Source: a virus (Duplodnaviria; Caudoviricetes). Taken from it: DNA of 64,000 nt. The translations under genes were made by a program, and so were the position numbers. The notes beneath the pieces are model-generated. The model was given only the letters and a program-made list of their open reading frames with translations. It made no database searches and was not told the origin of the DNA. Positions 8,802 to 36,871 of this stretch are shown one piece after another (position 1 is the stretch's first letter; the number at the start of each line of letters is the position of its first letter). Location: IMG/VR virus record IMGVR_UViG_2562617114_000001, positions 1 through 64,000 of that record. One strand, 5' to 3'.

Positions 8802-9906
8802 ACTGGATTCCTCGATTGTAGGAGGGCATGACCGAGTGGTTGAGCCGAAGCGGCGCCTTGGGCGGGGGCGTCCAGAGCTGAGCCGGACCCCACTGGTTCA
8901 TGTAGGAGTGGTAAACTTCGACCGTGTCGGCCACGATGTTGCGAGCGTGCTCGAACATCCTGTCGGCGGTGTCGATCGAGAGGGTGACCGGGATCATCCC
9001 GGAGTCCTTGCGGATCATTACCCAAACCCACTCGACGCCGTCGCCCTCGAGTAAGCTCTTGATGAAACCATCGCGAGGAGCGTCACCGTAGACGGCGCCG
9101 TAGGCGAGGAGCTTCTTCGCTTCTTGGAAGAGCTCCATATATGCCGCGACCTGGATGTCGTAGCACATGTCGTAGACCTTAAAGATGCCGGCTTGCTCGT
9201 GCGTTCCGCCCTTGTAGGTGTCGAATGATTTGAGGTCGACGATCAATGACTTGACGCGATCGCCGGCCGGCGGGATGGCGTAGTCGAGACGGCACTTGCG
9301 CCGGACGCCGTTGATGGTGACGATGATGGACAGCTCGGCCGCACCACTGATGAGCGAGCCGGCGACCATGACAGACGCGAGGGTAGGATCGCGCGTCATA
9401 TTAGCGACAGCATCCTCAATCTCCTGCACCTGTCGGTCGTCGAGGGTTTCGTGGTCCGGATGGTCGAAATACCAGCGGGCAAGGATTTCGTCGAAGAACG
9501 GCGGGCATTCGTCCAACTCTCGAGCTCGGGCCATCAGCTCCGGCTTGTTGCCGGTGAGCTTCTGCCCGTGCATGCGGAGGAACTCCTTGATCTGGTCAGT
9601 GGTGTTGAGTGCGTCCGGGTAGTCGCTCGGTACCGGCGGATTGGCATAACGCTCTTCGAACGCCGCCTTGCCCTCGAGCACGCGGCAATGCCACGCGCGG
9701 CCCCAGGTCAGATATTTCGGATCGCTCTTGCGCGGGCGGAGCCGGTCGTACTGCCACTTGCAGGGATCTTTCGCCAGCTGCATGAACGAGGTCGAGCCGA
9801 TCGCCGTGTCGGCGTGGTAGATCTCCTCCGGAAGGCCGAAGTAGATGCCGTCCGGCAACTGGTAGCGGCCGTCGGCGTCTGGCTTGAAATCGAGGTAGGT
9901 TTTCAC
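8779..9906 (-). CDS. RecE/ExoVIII-like PD-(D/E)XK exonuclease
   Basis: YHADTAIGSTSF, WGRAWHCRVLE, RKCRLDY..DLKS, YDIQVAAY; GTG start after AAGGAGG; adjacent to recT. Confidence 0.85.
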   Translation of the reverse strand: MKTYLDFKPDADGRYQLPDGIYFGLPEEIYHADTAIGSTSFMQLAKDPCKWQYDRLRPRKSDPKYLTWGRAWHCRVLEGKAAFEERYANPPVPSDYPDALNTTDQIKEFLRMHGQKLTGNKPELMARARELDECPPFFDEILARWYFDHPDHETLDDRQVQEIEDAVANMTRDPTLASVMVAGSLISGAAELSIIVTINGVRRKCRLDYAIPPAGDRVKSLIVDLKSFDTYKGGTHEQAGIFKVYDMCYDIQVAAYMELFQEAKKLLAYGAVYGDAPRDGFIKSLLEGDGVEWVWVMIRKDSGMIPVTLSIDTADRMFEHARNIVADTVEVYHSYMNQWGPAQLWTPPPKAPLRLNHSVMPSYNRGIQYEQPNNR

Positions 9907-10409
9907 AGGCCACCCTCCTTCGTCGTCACCCGGTACCGGATGATATCGCTGTTGAAATTCGAGTCGTCGGGATTGGAGTGCTTCCACCAGAGCCGCTGAA
10001 CTCGAGCTTTGTCGGTGCGGCCGTCACGCGTCTGGATCTCGACGAGCGTATTGTCAGGAAGTTCCGGCTTCTCGCGATCGCCGGACCAAACGATAAAAGC
10101 CTCGTTTTCGAAGATGCCTTCCTCAAGGGGAGGAATGACGACGTCTGGCAGAGCGCCGTCCATCATGTCGGCCAGCGCGCGAAGCATGCGTGCTGACTTC
10201 TCGGCATCGCCGTGGAAGGAGCTGACGCGGGCGTGAAACTGATAGGCAGCGTCGACCTTGATCTCTGTGCCAACCTTGATGTCCCGGCCGCCGTTGAGCC
10301 GGGTCCATGCCTCGTCATAGGAGCTGGTGAAACCGGCCGCCTTGATGATCTCTTCCTGAGAGATCTCGACAACGAACCTCTCGCGGCCGGCTGCTGCGAT
10401 GATCTTCAT
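9903..10409 (-). CDS. Hypothetical phage protein
   Basis: 168 aa, coupled at both ends. Confidence 0.7.
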   Translation of the reverse strand: MKIIAAAGRERFVVEISQEEIIKAAGFTSSYDEAWTRLNGGRDIKVGTEIKVDAAYQFHARVSSFHGDAEKSARMLRALADMMDGALPDVVIPPLEEGIFENEAFIVWSGDREKPELPDNTLVEIQTRDGRTDKARVQRLWWKHSNPDDSNFNSDIIRYRVTTKEGGL

Positions 10410-22481: not shown

Positions 22482-24101
22482 TTAATCTATTTTATGCCAA
22501 GTCGGCCAATCGTATCGGTCACGCTTCTTGCCGTTTTTGCTGACGGTGATGAAGCCGGTATTCACATTCGTCCCGACCGACGAGAACGAGTTAGGCGGGA
22601 GATCTTCCCACCGTGCGCCCATATCCTCCATCAGCTGGCGGAACGCGACCGACTTGTGTGTCTGTCGGAACTCGGTGCCGGCCGACATGATGGCGATCAA
22701 CTTCCCGTCGGGCTTGAGGAATTTCAGGGCGTGGACGACATGGTCAATGTCCCGCTCCCGATCGAAGGGTGGGTTCATGACCACCAGGTCGTACAGCCCG
22801 GTGGTCTCTGGCTCGATCGATATGAAGTCCGCATTGAAGACTCGGCCAAGCTTCCTGGCTTTCAGATCCGGGATCAGGTGCGGCTGGATCTCGATGCAGT
22901 CGACGACGTGGTCGACGCGGTACCGCTCCTGGTCCCAGCTCTTTTCGTAGTCGGGGTAGCACGCGACGGCGAGGTTGCCGGTACCCGCAGACGGCTCCAG
23001 GATCTTAAGGCGATCGCTCTCTTTCAAGCGGTGCCAGACGGGAGAGTTGCGGAGGATACGCTGCGCAGCGGCCGCCGGGGTAGGGTAGAAGCCGAAGTAG
23101 CGGGCAGGTGCCGTCTTCGCCTTCTCCGGTGAAAGCGGATCGTCGTCCACCTTGCGGCCATCGGCCAGCACTTCGCCATAGTATTCGCCGATCAGCTTGT
23201 TCACCTTGGCGACGAGATCCTTCCGCGTAAACCATAGGTGAGCGTTGCCGTTCTTGAAGATGCGGACATTGAAATACTCGGTCTCAACTTCGGTCTGGCG
23301 AGCGCCGGTCTGACCGTGGCGGGCGAGGTCGATCTCGCCGATGGTCTTAGTGAAGTAGTCGGCGGGCCGCTTCTGGCGCCGGGCTGCTTCATTTTCCTCG
23401 TCCTGCTTGCGAACCTCGTTCAGCTTGCCGTCAAGGATGGTGAACGTTCGCTCGATATCGATCAGCGTGGAGCGCTCGTCCTTGTGGGAGCTCCAGTTCC
23501 AACTGCCGTAGTCATTGAAGCAGCGGGTGAGGATCACGCGGGCTCCGACCTTGAACCCGTTGTGGGATCGGAAGCGACGGTCGAGCTTCGCGAAGGCGTT
23601 CGCCATGCCGCGCCGGAAGATCATGTCGGCGTCCATCATGAACTGCTCGAGCGTTGCGAGGACGTTTTCGACGGTCACCGGCGGCATGCCCTTGGCGGCC
23701 TGCTCCTCGGTGATCAACTGGCCGGGCTCCGTCGGCTCCTCGATGATGTGGGACATCTGTTCGCGCAGCTGGTCCTTCGCCTGTCGGTCCATCAGGTGCT
23801 CGAGCTCGGTGTGGCTGACCACCCATGCCCATACATTCAAGTCGATGATGTGCCGCTTCTCCCGCATGTAGTCGTCGAGGGGCGAGCGGCTGAGCGGGTG
23901 GAGCGCGCGCCGAGTGTCGACTTCATACGCCGCGTTGTAGGCGTTGGTGCGGGGGAAGGCGCGCTTCGCCATGTCGATTGCCGCGAGCTCAGCCTCGTGA
24001 GCCTCTTCGATCTTGGCGTGGGCGACTCCGAATAACTCGAGTGCCTTGTCCCGATAGGCGACGATCTGCTCGACCGTGTTGCGGGATACGATTGCGTTCA
24101 T
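22482..24101 (-). CDS. DUF4942 + class I SAM-dependent (N6-type) DNA methyltransferase
   Basis: FKNGNAHLWF; ILEPSAGTGNL; VVMNPPF. Confidence 0.88.
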   Translation of the reverse strand: MNAIVSRNTVEQIVAYRDKALELFGVAHAKIEEAHEAELAAIDMAKRAFPRTNAYNAAYEVDTRRALHPLSRSPLDDYMREKRHIIDLNVWAWVVSHTELEHLMDRQAKDQLREQMSHIIEEPTEPGQLITEEQAAKGMPPVTVENVLATLEQFMMDADMIFRRGMANAFAKLDRRFRSHNGFKVGARVILTRCFNDYGSWNWSSHKDERSTLIDIERTFTILDGKLNEVRKQDEENEAARRQKRPADYFTKTIGEIDLARHGQTGARQTEVETEYFNVRIFKNGNAHLWFTRKDLVAKVNKLIGEYYGEVLADGRKVDDDPLSPEKAKTAPARYFGFYPTPAAAAQRILRNSPVWHRLKESDRLKILEPSAGTGNLAVACYPDYEKSWDQERYRVDHVVDCIEIQPHLIPDLKARKLGRVFNADFISIEPETTGLYDLVVMNPPFDRERDIDHVVHALKFLKPDGKLIAIMSAGTEFRQTHKSVAFRQLMEDMGARWEDLPPNSFSSVGTNVNTGFITVSKNGKKRDRYDWPTWHKID

Positions 24102-24472
24102 GCTGGTCTCCGTTGATGCCATAGGCGGCGGGGGGGAATTGCTAAGATGTTAAGGCCTGGGGTTGAAAACCCATCCCTGGTCCATACCTCCTTGTGGCGC
24201 CAACAGAGACGAAATGATGTATCGTGGAACTTAGCCAGGTAAACCCAAGCCCCAGACAGGCGGCGGTAGTGGGGATCGACAGGTGGCTCCGGCCAGCCGA
24301 AGCCGGGCGGTGGTGGAAGTAGAAAGTGATTTACCGAACTCTCTGGGAGGCTCCGGAGACGGGGCCGCTTTAACTTATGGCCGTTTAAGTTGCGCTAGGT
24401 CGAAAATAATACTTGCAATTGGGAGTGCCTTTTCATTTCATCTCGCAATAATTGCCAATGAAGAGAAGCAGA

Positions 24473-25042
24473 ATGGAATCCCCGATCGCTTTGCCAAGCT
24501 TTGAGCAGCAGCTTGACGCCATGTTCGGCTGTTGCGATCCCGCCGGACGAACCATCGAAGACCCTGAACGCCACTTTAGCCCACAAAGTCTCCAGCGCCT
24601 GGACGAGGATACTGCGCCACTCATTAGACGCTATATGGAATTGGCATGTGATGGGTTGAGGCTTCCTGGTGTGTTGCACCGGACGCATCCTATGCTTTGG
24701 CTGATCGACAAACCAGGTGATGTCTGGACTGCAATAGAGGAGGTCATTGATGCGGAAACGGGTGCATACCTGTATCCTCTTTCTCGCAGCCAAAGTTCAA
24801 AGCCCGGGCATGTGCGCCTCGGACATCCGTCTTTAGTAATTGCCCGCAACAAGCATGCTCGGATCGGCGGAGAGATTAAGTATTCCGCTGCTGCAAATAA
24901 GTGGATCATATCAAATCGGTCCGGGAGGTATGGCACCCGCCCAAATCAAACGCAGGCTCATTTGGCTGCTGCAGCCAGTAGGTTTATGGAATTCGATATC
25001 GAACTCACCGTAAGCTTTTGGCAGCCAGGAAACTCACAATGA
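24473..25042 (+). CDS. Accessory (moron) protein 1, unknown; toxin-like motifs
   Basis: Opposite strand to neighbours, lower GC; GHPSL..ARIGGEI..ISNRSGRYG. Confidence 0.7.
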   Translation: MESPIALPSFEQQLDAMFGCCDPAGRTIEDPERHFSPQSLQRLDEDTAPLIRRYMELACDGLRLPGVLHRTHPMLWLIDKPGDVWTAIEEVIDAETGAYLYPLSRSQSSKPGHVRLGHPSLVIARNKHARIGGEIKYSAAANKWIISNRSGRYGTRPNQTQAHLAAAASRFMEFDIELTVSFWQPGNSQ

Positions 25043-25746
25043 TAATATTTTGGGATTTTGAACCATCCGAAATGCCTGCGCTTCAGGAAGTGATTACCTC
25101 GTCTGAAGGACTCAAAACTTTTATCTCTTCATTGAAGCATTTTCTGGCTGTGACCCCTCTCGATGGCGGAGCAGGAGAAGACCTGATCTATACTACTGGG
25201 ACAATGCTTACGAACGCTAACATTTGGTCGCGCCTACCGGCGGAGGATTTGGCCAACGCTTTAGCAGGCGAAGTCCCCATCGCTGCTGTAAAGTTGATCT
25301 TAGAACACGCATCGAGCGAATATCGACGCGCGGTGATCAGCGCGATGGAATCCACCACTCTATTGACTGAGTATAAGGAAATCTTAGATCGTGTGGAGGT
25401 CAACGAGCGATACAGTGCTCCCGAAGAATTTAAATTCCGGGGAAGTACACGCTTACCCGATCTTTCGCTCACGATGAGAAGTTATAAACCAAACTCGTTA
25501 CTTTTACGGTTTCACCATAAATTGCCTGAATCTAACTTGCGTTCTAACTTCGGTATTCACTTCCGTGCGTTAGGGCTTGAAAGCTCGGTTGCTATCTCGC
25601 TCGGTTTAGGAGTGACATGGGGCGTAACAATTAGACCAAATGCTGTGATAATGCATATCAATGGAAAGTATTTCGTTGAGATCGATGAAAGCGTCCTGCG
25701 GAAAGTAAGTAGCCAAAAAAAGGCGCCGATTTTCAGTCGGGATTGA
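25039..25746 (+). CDS. Accessory (moron) protein 2, unknown
   Basis: ATGA-coupled to protein 1, AT-rich codon usage. Confidence 0.7.
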   Translation: MIIFWDFEPSEMPALQEVITSSEGLKTFISSLKHFLAVTPLDGGAGEDLIYTTGTMLTNANIWSRLPAEDLANALAGEVPIAAVKLILEHASSEYRRAVISAMESTTLLTEYKEILDRVEVNERYSAPEEFKFRGSTRLPDLSLTMRSYKPNSLLLRFHHKLPESNLRSNFGIHFRALGLESSVAISLGLGVTWGVTIRPNAVIMHINGKYFVEIDESVLRKVSSQKKAPIFSRD

Positions 25747-25785
25747 TAGCTTTTACAGGTAAAGCTGCAGCAGTGCGGCACGAGA

Positions 25786-26031
25786 ATGACGTGGGCCGTT
25801 AGCATCCGAAATAACTCCTCTGGTGGTGAAGGCCCGATAAGAGATGACGAAGGGGTTAACCTCCCTGACCAAGAAGCTGTTCGGAGAGAGGTGGCGATGA
25901 TTGTGACTGGTCTTGCGCGAGATGAAATCCGGATGCAGCAGGCGGCCAATATCGTAGTCAACGTTCGAGATGAGGCCGACGCCAAGGTGTTCGTCGGCCA
26001 GTTGCAATACTCGGGTCGCTGGCAGGGGTAA
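25786..26031 (+). CDS. DUF6894-like protein
   Basis: DDEGVNLPDQEAVRREV...VRDEAD..VF. Confidence 0.65.
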   Translation: MTWAVSIRNNSSGGEGPIRDDEGVNLPDQEAVRREVAMIVTGLARDEIRMQQAANIVVNVRDEADAKVFVGQLQYSGRWQG

Positions 26032-26066
26032 TCCTCTTTCCGCAAATGCGCCCGTACCGTGCCCGG

Positions 26067-27227: not shown

Positions 27228-27274
27228 GGGTAGTCTCCGTGGTTCGCATGATTGCGGGGTGGTTGCCGGTTAAC

Positions 27275-27499
27275 CTACCGGCGGAGGATAGAGTAGGCGG
27301 TGGTTTCGGCCACAGCCCGGGGGTCGATGCGATCGGGCTCGATGGTGAGCCCGTCGGTAGCGTGCAGGGGATAGGAGTTGTGCGCCGTGAACCGCCTGCT
27401 TGCGGGGTCGAACGATATATACAGGGCTCCTGGCTTGATTCCGGGGCGAATGATGAGGCGGCCATCTCGCCGGACGTTCCAGTAGTCGAGGTCGATCAT
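27275..27499 (-). CDS. Small paralogue family member P1
   Basis: LYISFDPASRRF and C-terminal IDPRAVAETTAYSIL. Confidence 0.65.
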   Translation of the reverse strand: MIDLDYWNVRRDGRLIIRPGIKPGALYISFDPASRRFTAHNSYPLHATDGLTIEPDRIDPRAVAETTAYSILRR

Positions 27500-28233
27500 C
27501 CAAGGTATCCGGTGCGCGGGATCAGGTCGTACTTCTTGCCGATCTCATAGGTGATTTCGGTCGGCGTCTGCCCGGCTTCCATTGCAGCGGTGATGCGCTC
27601 CGGGTGGTCGGACACGAGGTCACCGTATCCCCATTGGCGCTCGGCTTCGGCCCGGCAAGCTGTGATGTATTCTTCCGGCGTCATCTTCTTGCGCTGGAAG
27701 TCTCGGTTGCTCGGGTCCGTCGTGCTCCCCTTGTCGGCGGCCACCATGGAGACGAAGATGGTGTGGATGTCAGGGTGGTAAGGCTCGCGGTTGTACTGGT
27801 TGTCTTCGGTGAGGAGCTTCCAGTCTAGCCGGCGAAGGACTTCCGGCACGAACTCCCAATCGTAGGCGTTCACGAACTCGTAGCCTTGCGACTCCGTGTG
27901 GGTATGCACCCGGAGCGCAATGTCGCCGGCTTGCACGGAGCAGTGGCGCATGGCGGACGAGCCGAGCCCTTCGAAGTAGTCCTTCAGCAGATCGTGGTCT
28001 CGGTTCTCGCACAACCATTCCCAGGCGCAGAGGGCGGCTTCCATCTGCAGGTGGGTGTAGGCGTCAGCATCGCTGAACCTCGCCTTCGGATCATCCTTCA
28101 CGCTGGCGAAGACCTCGATGCCGTTGGCGTCCTTACGGGGCTGCTTCTTGATGAAGACGCTCCACGATGTGGTGTCGCCGGCCAGGCTATCAATGTCAGC
28201 AGCGTGGGCATAGCCGATACGTTTGATGGGCAT
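27496..28233 (-). CDS. Acidic hypothetical protein
   Basis: AAAGGAAG RBS preceded by hairpin motif. Confidence 0.75.
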   Translation of the reverse strand: MPIKRIGYAHAADIDSLAGDTTSWSVFIKKQPRKDANGIEVFASVKDDPKARFSDADAYTHLQMEAALCAWEWLCENRDHDLLKDYFEGLGSSAMRHCSVQAGDIALRVHTHTESQGYEFVNAYDWEFVPEVLRRLDWKLLTEDNQYNREPYHPDIHTIFVSMVAADKGSTTDPSNRDFQRKKMTPEEYITACRAEAERQWGYGDLVSDHPERITAAMEAGQTPTEITYEIGKKYDLIPRTGYLG

Positions 28234-28264
28234 GGTCTCTTCCTTTCGCATGATTGCGGTGTGG

Positions 28265-28549
28265 TCAGGTGGCAACGCCGAGCGAGGCGGCGGTGCAGTT
28301 AGCGATAATGTGTGGCGGGATGATCGAGATCAGATACTCTCGAAGCTTGTCAGGCACATCGATGGTGCCGACGCCGTCAGCGCTTAGCCTTGTGCAGGTG
28401 CCGAAGACTCTTTGCTCGACCATGTAGATTGCATACCAGCGAGGGGCGCGACCATTGCTGAAGTCGATATAGATTCTGTCTTTCGTGCTGAATGAGGCCG
28501 CGATGTAGATCTCGGTGATGCGGTGCCGGATGCGGGCCGGGTCAACCAT
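28265..28549 (-). CDS. Small paralogue family member P2
   Basis: WYAIYMVEQRVF and LISIIPPHIIANCTAASL. Confidence 0.65.
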   Translation of the reverse strand: MVDPARIRHRITEIYIAASFSTKDRIYIDFSNGRAPRWYAIYMVEQRVFGTCTRLSADGVGTIDVPDKLREYLISIIPPHIIANCTAASLGVAT

Positions 28550-28735
28550 CTATTTCGGCACCCGGATCTTCGCCACGCTGTAGGGCTCGGCCGCCATGGG
28601 GTTAAGGCGACCGTCTCCGTAGATGGTGTGGTCTTGGAGGTGGTTGCGGACCGCATAGACCGCCTGCTTCTTGGACAGCAGGGCATCGAACCGCACCCGG
28701 ATTGTGATTTCGTGAGTCGTGCTCTTCATGGTCAT
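28550..28735 (-). CDS. Hypothetical protein
   Basis: MTMKSTTHEITIRVRF; ATGA-coupled. Confidence 0.6.
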   Translation of the reverse strand: MTMKSTTHEITIRVRFDALLSKKQAVYAVRNHLQDHTIYGDGRLNPMAAEPYSVAKIRVPK

Positions 28736-29367
28736 GCCTCCTTGGTGCAGAAGGCCTTGGCCCGGTCGATCAGCTTCGCCAACTCTGCGGAGTGGTGCGT
28801 CTCGTTCTTGATCTCGGCGAGGGCAGCCAGTTCTTTCACCAGATGGCAGGCCTCCCAGCTGAAGGGCTCGCCGTCCTTGCGCATGTCCATCTCCACGCCA
28901 TCGCCGCCCCACTTGTCGTCGTCGTTGGGGTCGTCCTCGTCCGGGCCATAGACGATCATAGTTTGGTCGCCTTCGATGGCGTCATCGATCGAGTAGTTGA
29001 AGTCGTCGTGCCTCAAGGTCGTTGCCTTCGCGACGGCCTCGTCGAAGCTTGTTGCCTGCACTTCGGTGTCGCACTCACCGCGGAAGGTGGCGAACAGGCG
29101 GACGCCGTAGGTGCGGAGCACGGGCTCGTCGTCTTCGCCGTCGCTGTCCTCGTTCGCCTCGATCTCCGCCATGTTGATCGCGCTCTGCATCACGTTCCGT
29201 GCAGTGTCGGCATCGAGTTGGCAGCGGAGGCGAAGGAAGTGGAAGACGTTGGTGACCAGGTCTTTCGCCTTCGTCTGGTCGTCCTCGCCGTGCATGGGGT
29301 GGGACAGGGTGAAGGCGTCGATAGCCAGAGCTGCGTAGGATGCGCGGTCTGCATTGTCTGGTGTCAT
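28732..29367 (-). CDS. Acidic hypothetical protein
   Basis: AAAGGAG RBS preceded by hairpin motif. Confidence 0.75.
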   Translation of the reverse strand: MTPDNADRASYAALAIDAFTLSHPMHGEDDQTKAKDLVTNVFHFLRLRCQLDADTARNVMQSAINMAEIEANEDSDGEDDEPVLRTYGVRLFATFRGECDTEVQATSFDEAVAKATTLRHDDFNYSIDDAIEGDQTMIVYGPDEDDPNDDDKWGGDGVEMDMRKDGEPFSWEACHLVKELAALAEIKNETHHSAELAKLIDRAKAFCTKEA

Positions 29368-29435
29368 GGGGGTTCTCCTTTGTTGCCATAGCTGGCGGGG
29401 TGGACTCCGTCCGCATCCGGTCCCATAATCCCGGC

Positions 29436-29639
29436 ATGCCAGACATTGACTGGAATAAAGCGCCAAAGGCGGCGCGGTGGTGGGCGATGGACAAGGATGG
29501 CGAGGCACACTGGTTCTGCGCCCCGGATGTCGCTGCGTTCACAGACTTCTGGTTCAGCGAGCCTATGCTGGCACCGAAATTCGGCTACGATGGCGATTGG
29601 CGGCAAAGCCTAGTTGAGAGGCCAGCCGTCAAAAGCTGA
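29436..29639 (+). CDS. Small Trp-rich phage protein (antisense insertion)
   Basis: IDWNKAPKAARWWAMDKDGEAHWF...WRQSLVERP. Confidence 0.7.
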   Translation: MPDIDWNKAPKAARWWAMDKDGEAHWFCAPDVAAFTDFWFSEPMLAPKFGYDGDWRQSLVERPAVKS

Positions 29640-30795
29640 TGCTGATCGGCTCACCGAACGGCAGATCCGCCGTCAGCTCGTCGAACCTACGCGGGTCACC
29701 GTAGACTCCCCACAGGACCGGGATTTCCGGATCGTTGCCGAAGTCGTAGACCTCGAGGTCGGTCAGGTAGATGATGAACCGCGCTTCCGGGAACCGCTCC
29801 ATGATAACGTTGAAGGAGTCGCGGAAAGCGGTACCGCCCCCGCCGACCGGCCGGAGCACCAGCTCGTCGCCGTTCTCGAACTCCTCGATCGCCTGCACCT
29901 TGGCGTCGGCATAGATCACGGTCAGCTTGTCGATCGCGCCTTCCATGTATGCGCCGTTGATCTCCGCCGCGAAGTCCTTGCAAGGCTTGTCGTCGAAGAC
30001 GGAGCCGGAGGAATCCTGCACGATGATGCCATGGCTGACGCCGTCGCTGATCGTGCCGGGGGTGACGAAGCCGAGCGGCAACATGCGCCGGTTCGGTTTC
30101 GACCAGCTGAAATCCCGAGTCATGCTCTCGTCGATGAAGCGGCGGAGCATCGCGCGCCAGTCGACCTTGGGCCGGAGCAGCTCTTCCACGAGCTTGGCGA
30201 TGTTGGCGGGTAGTTTGCCAGCCTGCGCTCCCTTGGCGGCCATGGCGGCCTGCTGGATCTGCACGTTCATCTCCGCCTCGAGCTCGGCAATGGTCGACTG
30301 GTCATGTGGGGCGCAGCCGTCGAGGACACCGCCGCAACCGCCGCCGTCCATGCTGTTCTCGTCGGAGTCGTCGCCGTTGTTCTCGTCGTCGAGGATACGG
30401 TAGATTTCCTCCGCGGACAGGCCGGTGAAGCGCGGCTCGAGCAGCCCGCACTCCGGCATCTTGCCCACCTTGCACTCGACCAGCTCGCCGTTGATGGCGT
30501 AGTCGGCCGCCTTGTTCCACCGGCCGGGCTTGCGGTGCTGCCGGCGGGTGTGATGCTTCAGCGCATTGTGCATGACCTCGTGGGCCAGGACGAACACCAG
30601 CTCGTCCTTCTTCAGGCTCATGACGAACGGCGTGTGGTAGTAGAGGTGGCGGCCGTCGGTTGCCATCGTGTCGATGCGCGGGTCATCGGTCGCATCGATC
30701 TTCTTCAGCTGCAGCATGAGCACACCGAAGAATGGGTGGTCCCACAGCAGGCCGGTCTGCGCGGCGAGGATCTTGTCTTGGACGTTCATGGTCAT
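29629..30795 (-). CDS. Metallopeptidase-VWA protein (DUF2201-like)
   Basis: TMATDG, LAHEVMH (HExxH), WNKAADYAIN, MIDAS-like DSSGS, GGGT, YLTD. Confidence 0.9.
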   Translation of the reverse strand: MTMNVQDKILAAQTGLLWDHPFFGVLMLQLKKIDATDDPRIDTMATDGRHLYYHTPFVMSLKKDELVFVLAHEVMHNALKHHTRRQHRKPGRWNKAADYAINGELVECKVGKMPECGLLEPRFTGLSAEEIYRILDDENNGDDSDENSMDGGGCGGVLDGCAPHDQSTIAELEAEMNVQIQQAAMAAKGAQAGKLPANIAKLVEELLRPKVDWRAMLRRFIDESMTRDFSWSKPNRRMLPLGFVTPGTISDGVSHGIIVQDSSGSVFDDKPCKDFAAEINGAYMEGAIDKLTVIYADAKVQAIEEFENGDELVLRPVGGGGTAFRDSFNVIMERFPEARFIIYLTDLEVYDFGNDPEIPVLWGVYGDPRRFDELTADLPFGEPISISF

Positions 30796-31103
30796 GTCCC
30801 TTGTGCATGGTTGCGGGTGAGGATGGCCGCCAACCCGACGGCCAATTGTTGCTGAGTGAGTTGGGTTCGGAGGATGCCGGCCAGGTGATGGTTGCTGGCG
30901 TTCATCTGGCCGATCGGCCTATCCCTCCGGATGATGTAGACGTTGAACGTCCGGGTGTCGGTGAGCAGGCACAAGCAGTATTCGTGATCGCGGTCTCGCT
31001 TGCGGCGGAAGCGCCAGATGTAGGCCCAATTTTGCAGCCCATCGTCAGGCTGAGGCGGGCGGATATTCGCCAGCCACGCTTGCTTGCGGGCTTCGCTGGT
31101 CAT
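30792..31103 (-). CDS. Small paralogue family member P3
   Basis: YCLCLLTDTRTF and ILRTQLTQQQLAVGLAAIL. Confidence 0.65.
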   Translation of the reverse strand: MTSEARKQAWLANIRPPQPDDGLQNWAYIWRFRRKRDRDHEYCLCLLTDTRTFNVYIIRRDRPIGQMNASNHHLAGILRTQLTQQQLAVGLAAILTRNHAQGT

Positions 31104-31468
31104 GGGTGCATCGCGTTCCACGCATCTTTCATGTAGCCGACGGCGTCGGCGGCATGGGTGTCGGCTTGTCGAGTGGCCGCCGCCTTGGATGCGCGCTGCC
31201 AGATTGTCGGGCTTATCGAGGCTGCGACACATGCGGCCAGCGCCCTGGGACCGATCGCTTCCTTGCCGATGTCGATCTCATCCGGCTTTGCTGCTCGCCA
31301 TTTCTGCCATGGGCTGACCTTGCTGTAGCGGCGACGGTAATCTCCGTTGAAGCGGCGGTCGATCACGTCATACTCAAGCCGGATCTCCATCGTGCAGGCC
31401 TTGCTGGTCCGGTCGCGGATGAGCCAGTTGAAGGGCTTCACTTCTTTGACGCTGTAAGTGCGGGGCAC
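31100..31468 (-). CDS. Small paralogue family member P4
   Basis: IRLEYDVIDRRF and IGPRALAACVAASI. Confidence 0.65.
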   Translation of the reverse strand: MPRTYSVKEVKPFNWLIRDRTSKACTMEIRLEYDVIDRRFNGDYRRRYSKVSPWQKWRAAKPDEIDIGKEAIGPRALAACVAASISPTIWQRASKAAATRQADTHAADAVGYMKDAWNAMHP

Positions 31469-31470
31469 TG

Positions 31471-31866
31471 TTACCTCCGTGTGATTGCCAGTGCCGTCGC
31501 CCTTGCGATGTCGGCAGCCGAGAGTTTCGATTTCAGGATGTCGGTGACGTTGCCTTCCTGCGTGAGCGTGGCGTCACCTTCGATGAACATCTTGGGGTGA
31601 ATGCAGGGGCCGGCTTCAGCCTCGATGCCTTGGGATCGAAGGCCCATGCGGTTTCGCCGACCATCCAGCGAGGGCTTGCCGGTGTTGCTCGCCAGAAACT
31701 TGCGGGTCTTGGGGGTGTAGGTGAGAACCCAATGGGACATCTCACCATCGCCGCGGATGCCGAAGAAATACCAGCGCAGCTCTTGCGTGGTCGGCTTCCC
31801 GTCGAGGATGACTCGCGTCTCCTCCGGTGCGAAAGGCCCGAAGACTTTGCGAATGATCGGCATCAT
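31471..31866 (-). CDS. Small paralogue family member P5
   Basis: WVLTYTPKTRKF and ILKSKLSAADIARATALAI. Confidence 0.75.
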   Translation of the reverse strand: MMPIIRKVFGPFAPEETRVILDGKPTTQELRWYFFGIRGDGEMSHWVLTYTPKTRKFLASNTGKPSLDGRRNRMGLRSQGIEAEAGPCIHPKMFIEGDATLTQEGNVTDILKSKLSAADIARATALAITRR

Positions 31867-32201
31867 TTCCTCCCGTAGTTGAGGGCGGCTATTGTGGCCC
31901 GGGCGATACGCTCATCGCCCAGGCGGTCTCTTAGAATGTCGGTGACGCGGGCGCCTTCGATCACACCGCGCTGCGTTTCGGGCAGCATGTCGAGGCTGCC
32001 TTGCTCGGCCAGCCGCTTCGCATACTTGGACTCGTTGCCGCCGGTGTGGTGCTTCACCCGGAACTTGCGGGTGTCGAGGAAGAAGGTCAGCGTGTAGCCT
32101 CGCACGTCGCCGTCCATGAGCACGCAGGAGAAGAACCACTTGAAGCCGTAGCCTTTGATCTCCTCACGGTACGGGCCCCACACTGCCTTGAACTTAGCCA
32201 T
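31863..32201 (-). CDS. Small paralogue family member P6
   Basis: YTLTFFLDTRKF and ILRDRLGDERIARATIAAL. Confidence 0.75.
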   Translation of the reverse strand: MAKFKAVWGPYREEIKGYGFKWFFSCVLMDGDVRGYTLTFFLDTRKFRVKHHTGGNESKYAKRLAEQGSLDMLPETQRGVIEGARVTDILRDRLGDERIARATIAALNYGRK

Positions 32202-32562
32202 CCATGCGGCCTCCGCGGAGTGATATCGCCGTCACTTCAGCGATGTCTTCGGGTTTGAGCATCGACTTCATGGCGACAGCCACGCTGCCCTTTGGGAGCA
32301 TGTGGCGGAGCACTGCGATCGGGCGGTAGATGTCCGCCAGATCCTTCGCATGGATCTTGTCCCAATAGGTGACCGTCAGAGGATTCGACGTGAACTTCTT
32401 CGTCTCGAGGCTGAAGCACAGGTGCCACCGGCGGATCTCACCGGCGGGTGTGACGCCGATGAACTCCCACTTGCAAATCTGCACGATCCGATCGGGATAG
32501 ACGCCAGCGTCCGCCGTCTTGTAGGACAGCGGACCGGCGATCCAATGCACCCCCTTATCCAA
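32194..32562 (-). CDS. Small paralogue family member P7
   Basis: WHLCFSLETKKF and MKSMLKPEDIAEVTAISL. Confidence 0.75.
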   Translation of the reverse strand: MDKGVHWIAGPLSYKTADAGVYPDRIVQICKWEFIGVTPAGEIRRWHLCFSLETKKFTSNPLTVTYWDKIHAKDLADIYRPIAVLRHMLPKGSVAVAMKSMLKPEDIAEVTAISLRGGRMDG

Positions 32563-33562
32563 GGGTCACATCCTGGTTCCGCACCGCCCAATCCGTGAAG
32601 GTCTGAGTGTGCGACAGGCCCGGGTCACGACGGACGGCATCGACCGCCATCATGATCTCGAACTCACGGGCAGGAATGCGTCGGATGTAGGTCATGGCGT
32701 TCTCGAAGGTCTTGGCATCGGCGCGACGGCCCAGTGCTGCCGAGATGGCAAACCGTGCCGACGGATCATCCGGAAGCGGCGCGCTGTTCGGGTTGGCGAG
32801 GACCAGATCCAGCGACGGGAGCTTCTGATAGACGCGGATGAAGCCTTCCAGCTCGCCGGCAGCACCATCGCCGACCACACCGGAGACCAGCGACAAGCGC
32901 CGGCTCGAGTCCTTGCCGATGTATTTGGCCGCCTGTTCCCACGAGCGGGGGGTGGGGAAGGCGCGGTCATCGGAGGACTCCGGCATCTTGTGGATGAGGT
33001 GCGGCCGGAAGCGGAGGAAGGCAATCATGATCGGGTCCATGCCGATCTTGTTGAAGTGCTCCACATGCACGTTGTCGTGGCCGGCGCTTGTGTCCGCCTC
33101 GACATCGATATGAGCGAAGCGGTTGGCGAGCGCCGTCGGCATGCGCTGTGCTGCTGCGCGGTCCGTCTGGCGGTTACCAGCTGCAACCACGCGCCAGCCC
33201 TTGGGGAGCACGTAGTCGCCGACCTTGCGATCGAGGACCAGGCCGAACATGGCGGCCATCATCGACGGCGGCGCGGCGTTGAGCTCGTCGAGGAAGAGGA
33301 TGCCTTCCGGACCGTCGCGCTCCACCTGTGGAAACTCGTCGGGCACCTTCCATTTCGTGGTGTCGCCGGAGATATCGGGCAGACCCATGAGGGCGACCGA
33401 GTCACGGGTGGAAGCGCGGAAGTCGATCAGGTTCCAGCCGCGGCTATCCGCAATCTGCTGTGTTGCCTGCGATTTGCCGCAGCCGGGTGGGCCCCACATG
33501 AACGCCGGCGTGTCCTCATCGAGGTAGTCGTTCAGGTTCAGGGCAGCAGTTTTAATGTGCAT
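32555..33562 (-). CDS. MoxR-type AAA+ ATPase
   Basis: GPPGCGKS, ILFLDELN, VVAAGN, ALANRF, FPTPRSWE. Confidence 0.92.
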   Translation of the reverse strand: MHIKTAALNLNDYLDEDTPAFMWGPPGCGKSQATQQIADSRGWNLIDFRASTRDSVALMGLPDISGDTTKWKVPDEFPQVERDGPEGILFLDELNAAPPSMMAAMFGLVLDRKVGDYVLPKGWRVVAAGNRQTDRAAAQRMPTALANRFAHIDVEADTSAGHDNVHVEHFNKIGMDPIMIAFLRFRPHLIHKMPESSDDRAFPTPRSWEQAAKYIGKDSSRRLSLVSGVVGDGAAGELEGFIRVYQKLPSLDLVLANPNSAPLPDDPSARFAISAALGRRADAKTFENAMTYIRRIPAREFEIMMAVDAVRRDPGLSHTQTFTDWAVRNQDVTLG

Positions 33563-33942
33563 TGGTCGTCTCCTTGTTTGCCATATTCGGCTGGGTCGAT
33601 GGGAAGGCCGATCCTCAAGCGGGTGAGGTCGGCAATGTCGGTGCCGCGCACCATGGAGAAAGCGGCATCGGCAAGCTTGTCGCGCGGGAAGCGCGGGTAG
33701 GACAGTTGCGGGAAGGGTGAGAGGTCTTCCGGCAGGCGGTAGTCGTGGAAGTTGGCGCCATACTTCGGCGCTTTGGCTCCCCAATGATCACGGGCTCGCA
33801 TCTTGAACGTCTTGTCGCGTGGCCCGATCAGCGCCTCGTATCGAAGCGTCTTTCCTTCGTCGGAGCGGAAGGCGAACCAGAACTTGAGCCGTCCGAAAAC
33901 TACCTGCCGGGCGTAGGGTCCGATCAGGAGTCCGGTGGGCAT
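33538..33942 (-). CDS. Small paralogue family member P8
   Basis: YEALIGPRDKTF and FSMVRGTDIADLTRLRI. Confidence 0.65.
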   Translation of the reverse strand: MPTGLLIGPYARQVVFGRLKFWFAFRSDEGKTLRYEALIGPRDKTFKMRARDHWGAKAPKYGANFHDYRLPEDLSPFPQLSYPRFPRDKLADAAFSMVRGTDIADLTRLRIGLPIDPAEYGKQGDDQCTLKLLP

Positions 33943-33943
33943 G

Positions 33944-34306
33944 TCACTTCCAAATGATCTCATCCGGAAACAGGATGGCCGGGCCGCATATGGGCGGCAG
34001 CTCCTCCGGGTCCATCGCCGGGCGCTGGGTCATCATGTTGTTGCGGTAGATTTCGGTCGCCCTAACGTTGCGGATGTGGCGGCCGTTGATGTTGCTGGTC
34101 TCTCCGACGAACATGTCGCGGCGTTCGCCCTCGTAGAGCACGGCAACATGCTCGACGGGTTCATCGAATGCGTCGGGCAGAAGCCGCTTGATCCAAGTCG
34201 AGATTGGCTCCCTTGTGAAGCGTGGCTCCATGCGGATTTCTTTTGCTTCGCCGAGCGCCGGGATGAGCAAAGCCCGGGCAAACGTTCCTGTTCTGAGGCC
34301 GGTCAA
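33944..34306 (-). CDS. Hypothetical protein (DUF3846-like, uncertain)
   Basis: EHVAVLYEG...MFVGE...NVRATEIY...ICGPAILF; TTG start after AAAGGAG. Confidence 0.7.
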   Translation of the reverse strand: MTGLRTGTFARALLIPALGEAKEIRMEPRFTREPISTWIKRLLPDAFDEPVEHVAVLYEGERRDMFVGETSNINGRHIRNVRATEIYRNNMMTQRPAMDPEELPPICGPAILFPDEIIWK

Positions 34307-34333
34307 TGGGCTCTCCTTTGTGCATGATTGCGA

Positions 34334-34366
34334 GAAAAAGGGACGCTGGCTCCGGCCAACGTCCCC
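34334..34366 (-). terminator. Intrinsic terminator
   Basis: GGGACG-TTGGC-CGGA-GCCAG-CGTCCC followed by TTTTT on minus strand. Confidence 0.75.
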
Positions 34367-34474
34367 ACGTGTTGCGGCGGGTTACTCGATTACTTCATGA
34401 CCGCCTCCTCTGGCTGTTGACGTTCGGGGTGAACCTGCCTTTACGGTCTCCACACCTACCGGGCAGGGATGGGA

Positions 34475-35371
34475 TCAGGCGAGGAAGTCGGACACGCTGT
34501 CCAAGATGCGCTGCGCCTCGGCCGCGGTGTCCTTGCGGACGTTCGCGTCTTCCTTCAGGGCCGCGGCATCGTACTTCGTGAGCGCCTTCAGACGCTCGCC
34601 AAGGGCGTCCAGCTCGGGCGACCCGACGATGTTGAGCGACGGCATGACGCTCACCAGATCCGCGATGTTCTCGACGAGGCTGGAGCGGAAGCCGCCGGTG
34701 CGCTCGCCGGGGGTGAAGCTGTTGAGGCGGTCCACCATGCGCTCTGTCAGGGTGGCAACGCGCTGGTAGACGTCGCGGACCGCGTTCTCGGTCGCCTTCT
34801 GCAGCTGCTCCTCGATATCGGCGCGGATGAGGGCGGCGTGTGCCTCGCTCATGTCGACGCGGAAGTCCGTCGAGGTCGGCACGGGCAGGACCGAATAGAC
34901 GATGCCGAACTTCTCCCGGATCTCGTTGCTGGTCGGGTAGTCGGTCGCCTTGAACAGCTTGCCCATGCGCTTTTGCGCGTCGGTGACGTGCTGGTCGAAG
35001 TCGTTCACCAGCTTATCCACCTCGCGCTGGAACTTGGCGGACTGGACGCGCATCCACGCGGTGAAGGGGAGATAGCCGTCGGCGCTGATGATGCGGCCGC
35101 CGTCATTGAGCCACGGCAGGGTGCGCTCATAGAAGCCGTTGCGGGTTTCGCTGACGAGCGTTTGAATGCCGGCGAGCGCTTCCTTGCTCACCAGCAGCTT
35201 GTTGACGCGGGAGGCGTCGGATGCTGCGTTGTGGGAGTCGTTGAGCTCCTGCGTCACCTGCCGATCAAGCCGGCGGCCGGACCACTGCGAAATCGTCACG
35301 CTGACGATCATCGCACGGCTGGCGAGGGTGGAGGTGGAGGCAGAGAGGGTAGCTGGGGTCATGGAATTCAC
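34475..35371 (-). CDS. DUF3150-like helical protein
   Basis: SQWSGRRLD..VNKLL..TLPW..G.RI..F.ATDYPT..EIREKF pattern; family recalled from phages/ICEs. Confidence 0.75.
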   Translation of the reverse strand: MNSMTPATLSASTSTLASRAMIVSVTISQWSGRRLDRQVTQELNDSHNAASDASRVNKLLVSKEALAGIQTLVSETRNGFYERTLPWLNDGGRIISADGYLPFTAWMRVQSAKFQREVDKLVNDFDQHVTDAQKRMGKLFKATDYPTSNEIREKFGIVYSVLPVPTSTDFRVDMSEAHAALIRADIEEQLQKATENAVRDVYQRVATLTERMVDRLNSFTPGERTGGFRSSLVENIADLVSVMPSLNIVGSPELDALGERLKALTKYDAAALKEDANVRKDTAAEAQRILDSVSDFLA

Positions 35372-35442
35372 GTTCAGTCTCCTTTGGTTGCCATGAGTGG
35401 CGGGGGCGGTGGAATCTACACGCGGGATTGCGTGGACAGAAG

Positions 35443-35730
35443 TCAGGCCGCGAGTGATGCGGCCAAGCACCGCGCTCTCTCTTCCGGCGGGATCATCGAC
35501 AGGAATAGCTCGGCAAGCTTACGCGGGCGCGGCAGGCGCTTTGTGGTGCCGAACCCGTTGTGGATTTTAACTCCAGCCCGGAAGCGCCGGGAATCCGTCT
35601 GGAAAACGAGGTGATACTGGCGGCGGGGTTTGCCACAATCAAACCTGTAGACGATGCCTTGGCCTTCCAGATCCGGCGTTGTCAGGCGGCCGACATAGCG
35701 GAACACGGGGCGGATGCTATCGGCGTTCAT
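35443..35730 (-). CDS. Small paralogue family member P9
   Basis: YHLVFQTDSRRF and FLSMIPPEERARCLAASL; ATGA-coupled. Confidence 0.7.
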   Translation of the reverse strand: MNADSIRPVFRYVGRLTTPDLEGQGIVYRFDCGKPRRQYHLVFQTDSRRFRAGVKIHNGFGTTKRLPRPRKLAELFLSMIPPEERARCLAASLAA

Positions 35731-36539
35731 CCGACCGTGTTCCCGTCTTCGTCGAAGGTGAAGTCGGCAAGCGCCTCGTCCACCGCCTCGTCGGACGTAA
35801 GGTACTCGTGCTCCGCCTCCAGCTGGCGATAGATCCAGTCCATGAACGAGCGGAGGCATGCGGCGACCTCCTCCACGAAAGGGCCGTAAATGAGCCCATA
35901 TCGACCACATAGCGCGTTCCAGGTCATCACCTGCAATTGGTTGTCTTCGTCCAGCGAGTCAGGCGTGGGCAAGTCTGCGTCGATCGACACCGAATAGGCG
36001 TGGCAATAGCTGGAGGTGCCTTTCTCGATGGTCACCGTTGCGTCCGGGATGAGCGCGTTGCACCGTTCCGATATGTCGGCCAGGGAGAACGCAATCTCAT
36101 GCAAGCGCTCATCCGTCGGGGCGTGGCGTATGACGGCGGAGAGGGAGGCGAGCGGATTGCTCACCGGGCGCCAATCGCCAGTAAAGCACGCGCCATCGCC
36201 TTGGCTGGAGAAGCCCGTGAAATAGATTGCGGGCGAGGTGACCGTCTCGCCGTTTTGCAGGCGTTCGCGCTTGTCGTCGATCTCAATGCCCATCACACCG
36301 GCGATCAAGATGGCGTCGTCATAGATCGAGTCCCACCAGTCGTAATGCAGGCCCTCGGCGCGGTAGTCGTCGCGGGCTCGTTCTTTCGCGCGGGGTGACA
36401 GCTCCTTAAACGAAAACTCCGCCTTGTCGGCGGAGTCGTCGTCCTCAAAGTCGGTTGCGGGCTGGTTGACGTAAATGGGTGCACCTTCAGCTATTGCGCG
36501 GTTGACGGCGCGGGTAAGGGCGGCACGAGCGGCGTTCAT
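35727..36539 (-). CDS. Acidic protein of a plasmid/ICE family often labelled antitoxin of toxin-antitoxin stability system
   Basis: FKELSPRAKERARD..YDWWDSIYDD..IYFTGFSSQGDGACF..WIYRQLEAEHEYLTSDEAVDE. Confidence 0.75.
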   Translation of the reverse strand: MNAARAALTRAVNRAIAEGAPIYVNQPATDFEDDDSADKAEFSFKELSPRAKERARDDYRAEGLHYDWWDSIYDDAILIAGVMGIEIDDKRERLQNGETVTSPAIYFTGFSSQGDGACFTGDWRPVSNPLASLSAVIRHAPTDERLHEIAFSLADISERCNALIPDATVTIEKGTSSYCHAYSVSIDADLPTPDSLDEDNQLQVMTWNALCGRYGLIYGPFVEEVAACLRSFMDWIYRQLEAEHEYLTSDEAVDEALADFTFDEDGNTVG

Positions 36540-36547
36540 GGGAAGCC

Positions 36548-36871
36548 TCACAGGCTTATGCGGATCGACACAGAAAAGCCCGCCGGTGCGATTTGCACGG
36601 GCGGGCGGTGGATCGGCGCGGGTTTCGGTTTAGGCGCGCGGTATGCGGCCTTGACGGGTTTCGGGCGCGGCAACGGGACCGGGCCAGCGATAGGCAATTC
36701 TGCGAACGACTCCACCAGTGTTGGAGCTGGCGGAGCGGGAATGGGTGCCAGCGCAACAGGGGCGGGCGCTGGTGCGGGTGCGGGCTTGCTGTTGGAGATT
36801 ATGCCGGTGGCGCCTTGGAAAAGCACGAGGGCGACCGTCGCAAGCGTGGGGAAGCCGCCAGCGTGACTCAT
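36548..36871 (-). CDS. Membrane-anchored Pro-rich protein
   Basis: N-terminal hydrophobic stretch, PAPAPAP linker; ATGA-coupled. Confidence 0.55.
   Translation of the reverse strand: MSHAGGFPTLATVALVLFQGATGIISNSKPAPAPAPAPVALAPIPAPPAPTLVESFAELPIAGPVPLPRPKPVKAAYRAPKPKPAPIHRPPVQIAPAGFSVSIRISL

Follow-up and report, generated by a model that had tools for sequence, protein, structure and literature searches.

Coliphage N4 carries an adjacent gene pair, gp24 and gp25, which represents the families PHROG 1297 (MoxR-type AAA+ ATPases) and PHROG 1314 (zincin metallopeptidases with a VWA domain), and such pairs recur in Schitoviridae, in jumbo phages and on plasmids. A tblastn search of the phage collection returned 838 MoxR and 504 zincin-VWA records. 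Literature searches gave no established function for the MoxR/zincin-VWA pair, the only proposal being the virion-assembly role put forward by Iyer et al. in 2021 (PMC7824862). In related couples VWA domains capture a substrate peptide for remodelling by MoxR, and variable third components have joined such MoxR-vWA couples (PMC7159879). Here we describe a locus in a 64,000-nucleotide stretch of a virus of the Caudoviricetes (IMG/VR record IMGVR_UViG_2562617114_000001, positions 1 to 64,000; hereafter the window) which has the same ATPase and zincin-VWA families and, around them, nine small genes, s1 to s9 (Table 1). These nine genes belong to a fast-diversifying family of small (74–134 amino acids, aa), basic, single-domain proteins and are part of a MoxR/zincin-VWA/295-aa operon.

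No gene separates the two members of the pair in N4, whereas in the lineage of the window two to six genes of the new family occupy the gap and others flank MoxR. A third gene of the module, specifying a 295-aa protein, is located upstream of MoxR here and not between the two members of the pair. The two phages are alike in that the pair lies in an early or middle, non-structural region.

One family of nine divergent genes

The earlier note on this DNA, made from the letters alone, described nine open reading frames (ORFs) as divergent paralogues sharing a beta motif and a C-terminal helix motif. All nine were confirmed on the minus strand, and every motif string that had been quoted is present in them. 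Direct BLASTP among the nine links only s5-s6-s7 and s2-s9, and an alignment of the whole family contains no conserved stretch of 7–10 residues. A hidden Markov model (HMM) made from s5–s7 alone ranks s9, s8 and s3 at positions 4, 5 and 7 among the 924 ORFs of the window, and single-linkage BLASTP by way of homologues from other loci unites s2, s4, s5, s6, s7 and s9.

Comparison of orthogroup profiles with hhalign gave P values of 7.8e-15 for g2-g9, 1.4e-11 over 114 columns for g567-g8 (the s5–s7 type versus the s8 type), 3.6e-10 for g567-g9, 7.7e-9 for g4-g9, 4.5e-8 for g2-g567, 5e-6 for g3-gX5 and 1.5e-5 for g3-g9, as against P values of at least 0.014 throughout for six decoy families drawn from neighbouring genes of the block. 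The weakest member is s1, whose orthogroup of three sequences matches a family profile built without s1 at P 1.3e-7 (hhalign probability 94%); the minimum P value among 30 column shuffles was 0.036. The iterated family HMM recognizes eight of the nine in the window at E values of 2.6e-9 or lower (s5, 7e-23; s4, 1.5e-12; s3, 2.6e-9), s1 being supported at the profile-profile level only. Membership was defined by a co-linear match to strand 2 (W.F), strands 3–4 ([YW].L.[FY]...R.F) and, at the C-terminal end, the final helix (L.PEDIA..TA..L), and by this definition all nine small proteins belong to the family. The iterated HMM converges on 116–118 members in 21 loci, every one of them encoded on the same strand as MoxR, with no match on the other. 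When the 7.05-Mb genome which carries the window as a prophage was searched with the nine-sequence profile, matches at E ≤ 10 occurred at these nine places only.

Since the orthogroup matches surpass those of the decoys, and that of s1 surpasses its shuffles, the nine are a single family. On sequence grounds the nine ORFs are coding, homologous genes, and the significant profile-profile comparisons, which the earlier note had named as a check, agree with its picture of one divergent family having a conserved scaffold and a variable middle. For s7, s8 and s3, the three members tested, comparison with L035, the closest relative of the window phage, gave ratios of nonsynonymous to synonymous substitution rates (dN/dS) of 0.17–0.65, and such values below 1 support real coding genes. 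The idea that they are not genes at all was discarded on the strength of these ratios, the orthologues in many loci and the restriction of the HMM hits to the coding strand.

The nine match no known family, and the earlier note had not recognized one. None of the nine proteins has a match in Pfam (E ≤ 1) or in PHROGs, s5 and s8 have none in NCBIfam or PADLOC, and a PDB profile search with the small family gave a best E value of 0.003 over 42 columns, which is no relative. We considered and rejected the derivation of the family from MoxR, from the VWA protein, from the 295-aa protein or from the 120-, 258-, 259- or 274-aa proteins of the block (hhalign P ≥ 0.16). An exhaustive profile search of 1.84 billion representatives yielded 282 clusters (defined at 50% identity) at E ≤ 1e-3, of which 126 were at E ≤ 1e-10; a word-indexed search found only 31 family proteins. 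The 150 family matches listed are all 93–154 aa in length, with the exception of one repeat protein. A giant metagenomic repeat protein of 1981 aa (P0125) has 12 profile matches which cover only the C-terminal helix motif (L..E.I..C.AAL), and this helix-cap motif may be present in other contexts as well. The distribution of the family is sporadic: within the genus, two of the 36 further genomes hold it, with clusters of four to five profile matches, and 400 genomes sampled across the order gave only single weak matches (E 6e-5 to 9e-4) which were treated as noise. Whatever role proves to be right, this is a sizeable and so far unannotated family.

Table 1. Small-family genes (s1 to s9) and genes of the associated operon, with their positions in the window
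Gene or product	Position	Strand	Length	Remarks
s1	27275-27499	-	74 aa	Minimal member, lacking the N-terminal strand and the middle insert; orthologues in loci L019 and L030
s2	28265-28549	-	94 aa	Type C2; orthologues in 5 loci
Zincin metallopeptidase + VWA protein	29629-30795	-	388 aa	N4 gp25 type; DUF2201_N and DUF2201
s3	30792-31103	-	103 aa	Last gene of the array; stop overlaps VWA start by 4 nucleotides (nt)
s4	31100-31468	-	122 aa	Type D4; C-terminal extension
s5	31471-31866	-	131 aa	Type A, the most widespread subtype; many orthologues, 40-64% identity
s6	31863-32201	-	112 aa	Type A; member modelled by AlphaFold2
s7	32194-32562	-	122 aa	Type A; first after MoxR, 8-nt overlap with MoxR stop
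MoxR-type AAA+ ATPase	32555-33562	-	335 aa	Pfam AAA_5 (E 1.1e-6) and AAA (E 2.3e-5)
s8	33538-33942	-	134 aa	Type B; last 25 nt overlap MoxR start
Acidic protein (isoelectric point, pI, 5.7)	33944-34306	-	120 aa	Conserved at this place, with s8/MoxR on one side and the 295-aa gene on the other; outside the small family
295-aa protein	34475-35362	-	295 aa	Mainly helical; third conserved gene of the module, in this phage located upstream of MoxR
s9	35443-35730	-	95 aa	Between the 274-aa gene and the 295-aa gene

Association with the MoxR and zincin-VWA genes

The tandem of five coupled copies which the earlier note placed between the VWA and ATPase genes is as described, the junctions along MoxR-s7-s6-s5-s4-s3-VWA being -8, -8, -4, +2, -4 and -4 nt. 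From s8 by way of MoxR to VWA the genes of the window are chained mostly by overlaps of 4–25 nt, and the start of s9 overlaps the stop of the gene at 35727–36551 by 4 nt. The array genes are presumably co-produced, through translational coupling, with the MoxR AAA+, zincin-VWA and 295-aa genes of the operon.

With MoxR as bait, five loci from named genomes and 11 from IMG/VR were retrieved (MoxR 63–93% identical). Copy number and co-occurrence with the ATPase/VWA module were examined, as the earlier note had suggested: each of the 19 MoxR-baited loci with a MoxR identity of at least 63% holds two to nine copies of the family. Most of the mapped loci were obtained with MoxR as bait, and hence the family itself was also used as bait, by way of two genomes of the same genus (G011 and G033), eight family-protein look-ups and an IMG/VR scan with the s5 subtype. 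The loci so found include P0012, P0021, P0019, P0031, P0126, P0170, P0135, L058 and L059. In 12 out of 12 family-baited loci a MoxR and/or a VWA gene adjoins the family genes, even though the MoxR of two of them is merely 42–43% identical to that of the window; homologues independent of the ATPase and VWA genes were looked for among these 12 and none was seen. Over all 31 loci, then, the family adjoins MoxR (phrog_1297) and/or the zincin-VWA gene (phrog_1314) without exception. The recurrent, tight association proposed for the module is borne out, and the link of the family to the MoxR/VWA operon is real and recurs in related phages.

Gene order within these loci is equally constant. In 20/20 mapped loci, the window included, the MoxR-VWA gap (676–2511 nt) holds solely family genes, two to six of them, and in the same 20 a type-A gene (of the s5/s6/s7 kind) stands directly after MoxR. 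Across 23 loci the first family ORF starts between -88 and +122 nt from the MoxR stop, and in 11 of these a type-B gene (of the s8 kind) ends 3–30 nt inside the MoxR start. The 120-aa gene was found in 14 of the 20 mapped loci, counting the window, and its product is not related to the small family (hhalign P 0.59).

More distant loci have other genes at this place. In L037 (10961–12222; also in L038 and L039), whose MoxR is 41% identical, the gap holds a gene with an Nmad5 domain (Pfam E 1e-6) and an unrelated 202-aa gene. The gap-filling genes of distant loci (216, 202, 330 and 316 aa) were compared with the family, and the idea that they derive from it by fusion or enlargement was rejected (hhalign P ≥ 0.3).

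Replacement of family genes between close relatives

MoxR, VWA, the 295-aa and 120-aa proteins, DnaN and the methyltransferase of the window are 91–97% identical to their L035 counterparts (dN 0.014–0.056). In the same comparison s7 is 74% identical (dN 0.18), s8 54% (dN 0.39) and s3 33% (dN 0.57), with all dN/dS values for the pair of phages below 1. The array interior (30820–32161), the s1/s2 segment (27259–29639) and the s9 segment (35405–36546) have no DNA-level alignment to L035 at all. Because their neighbours are so well conserved while they themselves are diverged or unalignable, the family genes behave as replaceable cassettes of an otherwise conserved operon.

The ATPase, the peptidase and the third gene

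MoxR was identified, in keeping with the earlier assignment as an AAA+ protein, through its Pfam matches and its similarity to phrog_1297 (E 2.3e-82 over 330 of 335 residues); it possesses the Walker A (GPPGCGKS) and Walker B (LFLDE) sequences. A 409-aa version of the ORF beginning at TTG 33784 was rejected as an over-extension, homologues being 330–346 aa long.

The 388-aa protein contains PF13203 [DUF2201_N] (E 1.7e-50) and PF09967 [DUF2201] (E 3.4e-16) and is related to phrog_1314 (E 6.5e-87), which upholds its description as a metallopeptidase-VWA protein. Its HExxH residues (H72, E73 and H76) and those of the DxSxS MIDAS (D261, S263 and S265) are invariant in 22 homologues, and because of this the MoxR/zincin-VWA machine is probably active. 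Phrog_1314, N4 gp25 (L054) and many RefSeq phage records bear the label “HNH endonuclease”; Pfam finds DUF2201_N and DUF2201 in them and no HNH domain, and the label is probably a propagated mis-annotation.

The 295-aa protein is homologous to a gene of 316–352 aa which is found between MoxR and VWA elsewhere, in marine phage contigs and a Paraburkholderia plasmid (hhalign probability 100%, P 3.6e-61, 297 columns). Because of this homology the general module is to be regarded as a triad. In this lineage the third gene has been relocated to a position upstream of MoxR, and its vacated slot has been taken by the small family. The earlier designation of the 295-aa gene as DUF3150-like fared less well. 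HMMER found no match between the protein and PF11348 [DUF3150] at E ≤ 5 (gathering score 24.9 bits), nor was the gene matched when the whole genome was scanned with PF11348 at E ≤ 10. The designation survives as a lead to a remote relationship from the ESM Atlas, where the viral clusters nearest to the protein (score 0.97–0.98) have PF11348 in 12–41% of their members. The model of this protein (pLDDT 82) consists mostly of long helices, and a fold search with it gave generic helical bundles only, the best (Z 10.7) being on the C-terminal four helices.

Predicted structure of a family member

AlphaFold2 was applied to s6, the one member modelled, with an alignment of 101 sequences (pLDDT 77.7, pTM 0.68). 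The model has a four-strand meander (residues 2–16, 19–28, 33–41 and 47–52), a helix (56–66), a poorly conserved stretch, a further strand (78–83) and two C-terminal helices (86–93 and 96–109) upon which the four-strand sheet packs. Conserved in the family are, in s6 numbering, G9, P10, W22, F24, Y/W36, L38, F40, R45 and F47 and, toward the C-terminus, L90, L94, P96, E97, D98, I99, A100, T103, A104 and I/L107. In strands 2–4 the conserved positions alternate with variable ones, and along the last helix they recur with helical periodicity. As this is the pattern of a packed core, we infer that the two motifs would form the two halves of the hydrophobic core of the fold, leaving the opposite face of the sheet and residues 53–85 free to vary. 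The C-terminal helix had been taken for a docking element; in the model this helix and the beta motif both carry alternating conserved hydrophobic residues, so that a place in the core appears the better assignment and an exposed element does not.

No match to the s6 model at E ≤ 0.001 was found by Foldseek in PDB or BFVD, VIA-align over 48,161 chains gave no Z score of 5 or more, and the ESM Atlas returned no usable match to the s6 sequence. The model thus has no convincing counterpart among solved folds. The best VIA-align matches, both weak, were to SpoVG (Z 4.4, root-mean-square deviation 3.0 Å, 68 aligned residues) and Pur-alpha (Z 4.0, 1.6 Å, 46 aligned).

All nine proteins are basic (pI 8.7–10.8, net charge +2 to +10) and on that account are not DNA mimics. 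One might instead suppose that they are small nucleic-acid binders, that is, regulators or accessory factors of replication whose sheet-plus-helix domain contacts DNA or RNA. SpoVG and Pur-alpha are both binders of this sort, the charge is shared by all nine, and the neighbouring genes include those for DnaN, primase, DnaB and RecT. We consider this improbable: the Z scores are far under the level at which VIA-align is meaningful, the surface has no evident conserved basic patch (the sole conserved basic residue, R45, is in a turn), and the fixed coupling to MoxR would be left unexplained.

Possible role of the small proteins

Joint action of the small proteins with the machine would best account for the conserved, coupled order around MoxR, which is kept over much divergence, the confinement of the family to this operon, the intact MIDAS and HExxH motifs and the turnover of cassettes. 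We tentatively favour the possibility that they act, whether as adaptors or as clients, as exchangeable partners of the MoxR/VWA-peptidase machine of the phage and are used in conflict with the host. Precedents are the peptide capture of VWA/MoxR couples and a transposon screen, available as a preprint (10.1101/2025.11.20.689424), in which defeating a bacterial defence system required the MoxR ATPase of a phage. The constant core, a four-strand sheet on C-terminal helices, would present the variable sheet face and the insert to different targets, and each copy would couple a different protein, probably of the host, to ATP-driven remodelling and perhaps to cleavage. Alternatively, each copy may itself be a client activated by the machine. 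Physical binding, the choice between adaptor and client, and the part played in host conflict are what we infer from these comparisons.

A more elaborate form of the same idea, which we think unlikely, is that of a programmable remodeller-protease. Interchangeable adaptors would bind immune sensors or effectors of the host through the variable sheet face and insert and deliver them to the MoxR hexamer and its zincin-VWA partner, to be unfolded or cleaved, and the phage would retarget the system by swapping cassettes of 0.3 kb. If true, this would provide the first function for the widespread pair of the N4 gp24/gp25 type. That pair occurs in hundreds of phages and on plasmids, and the private, exchangeable small proteins which accompany it in this lineage offer a genetic handle on its targets, by deletion, exchange or pull-down. 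If they are specificity factors, they would represent a novel means of redirecting a single phage enzyme as the proteins of the host change.

Several observations weigh against a partnership between the small proteins and the machine. The MoxR-VWA pair is present without the family in 12 loci (MoxR 28–41% identical), on the Paraburkholderia plasmid and in phage N4, from which it follows that the machine has a job independent of the family. Only five of the nine copies are in the MoxR-VWA gap; the remaining four (s1, s2, s8 and s9) are found elsewhere in the block, among its other genes. In L052, an Agrobacterium-type prophage represented by 13 contigs, the VWA gene has been lost. A natural deletion here (L052:8001–11100) extends from just past the first array gene into the C-terminal part of the 258-aa gene, removing VWA and most of the array and sparing MoxR, the 295-aa gene and three family genes, of the s8, s7 and s2 types. 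VWA is therefore not strictly required for the retention of family genes, and if the small proteins depend on the machine their link is tighter to MoxR than to VWA. The basic charge would fit nucleic-acid binding too. Lastly, the block is mosaic in general, so that the co-location could in part reflect a recombination hot spot.

The last point leads to another explanation, in which the small proteins are stand-alone accessory proteins, such as inhibitors of defence or host-takeover factors, which have collected in an early hot spot and do not need MoxR or VWA. Cassette replacement together with high dN is typical of anti-defence genes. The copies outside the gap and the persistence of family genes in L052 would be expected on this explanation, as would the unrelated Nmad5-domain and 202-aa genes which other phages hold in the same gap. 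One would assume, however, that a hot spot gathers mixed cargo, yet the gap of this lineage holds the family only; all 31 loci have the family next to MoxR and/or VWA, and the type-A gene is coupled to the MoxR stop every time. We regard stand-alone proteins as a somewhat unlikely explanation, and continue to prefer exchangeable partners of the machine.

The prophage and its leftward gene block

The nine-gene array sits in a leftward block of approximately 22 to 39 kb, which also includes the DUF4942-methyltransferase, the DnaN clamp, the MoxR-type ATPase and the DUF2201 zincin-VWA protein. On the plus strand from about 41 kb are terminase gpA, a lambda-type portal and the capsid gene; RecT, the PDDEXK exonuclease-like gene, primase and DnaB are located upstream. 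Named relatives of the block are found in Ensifer, Brucella, Ancylobacter, Peteryoungia and Agrobacterium, for which reason the host probably belongs to the Rhizobiales. The lineage is one of temperate phages of Rhizobiales-type alphaproteobacteria.

This arrangement bears on what Iyer et al. suggested for the pair as it occurs in jumbo phages, namely virion assembly with peptidolytic processing, for which the Acidianus two-tailed virus is a precedent cited in both PMC7824862 and PMC7159879. Applied to the window, MoxR and the zincin-VWA protein would be an assembly chaperone which matures structural proteins, with the small proteins as its assembly factors, helpers or substrates. The pair is situated among genes of replication and nucleotide metabolism here and in N4, and not in the structural module, which in this phage is on the other strand. 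Moreover, a range of two to nine copies among close relatives with the same virion genes would be odd for assembly factors. A function of this kind is thus, in our estimation, improbable for the small proteins.

Several other features of the window were recorded. A 546-aa fusion of DUF4942 and a methyltransferase (22482–24122, minus strand) resembles PADLOC “mad2” (E 9.5e-13) as well as, in several PHROGs, the methyltransferase regions of giant polyvalent proteins of phages, and is 97% identical in L035. A two-gene cassette of lower GC content on the strand opposite to the block (24452–26031, plus strand; 196 and 242 aa, no Pfam match) is followed by a DUF6894 gene (E 7e-12). The stretch 24136–26065, which contains the cassette, does not align to L035, where approximately 3.5 kb of other DNA is found. 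The C-terminal tail (residues ~326–369) of a DUF3799/PDDEXK exonuclease-like protein (8779–9987, minus strand) matches marginally the strand 2–4 half of the family profile (16.9 bits, E 0.0016 among 924 ORFs; pattern W.W...V.L.ID..DR.F), which could be due to chance or to a shared beta-meander module.

Comparison with related systems

The ternary systems described by Kaur, Burroughs, Iyer and Aravind in 2020 (PMC7159879) share with the locus of the window the MoxR-vWA couple, the diversifying extra components and the logic of peptide capture followed by remodelling. They are bacterial conflict systems with hypervariable third components, and by analogy the present module might be a MoxR-vWA ternary system which the prophage carries for defence or exclusion, with the small paralogues as its variable sensors or effectors. 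Those systems are cellular and occur in multicellular bacteria. Their MoxR has a special N-terminus and their third components are of the VMAP, iSTAND, FtsH or beta-propeller kind; neither feature is found here. Systems of the VMAP type are recognized by a VMAP protein and by a MoxR N-terminal extension with the motifs WxhapG and PsWRxa; in the window MoxR the P-loop is about 25 residues from the start, leaving no place for the extension which defines them, and the block contains no large VMAP-like gene. Furthermore, the PADLOC match is limited to a P-loop fragment, the same pair is core to the strictly lytic N4-like phages, and the genes are co-oriented and chained with genes of lytic replication. 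A defence system is accordingly the reading to which we give very little credence. The module described here is phage-borne, and its variable parts are separate proteins of 10–15 kDa.

NorQ-NorD, CbbQ-CbbO, RavA-ViaA and CoxD-CoxE likewise combine a MoxR ATPase with a VWA protein whose MIDAS is intact. Each of these couples has one fixed client enzyme and no peptidase domain, whereas the module of the window includes a zincin domain, and its small proteins form an interchangeable set. Tandem, coupled, fast-evolving and exchanged small genes of the same kind make up other phage arrays, those of diverged paralogues with anti-defence or accessory roles. The array of the window differs from these in being embedded in, and restricted to, one conserved enzyme operon. 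What is new in this locus is that its MoxR-VWA system has acquired a previously undescribed and diversifying set of small proteins.

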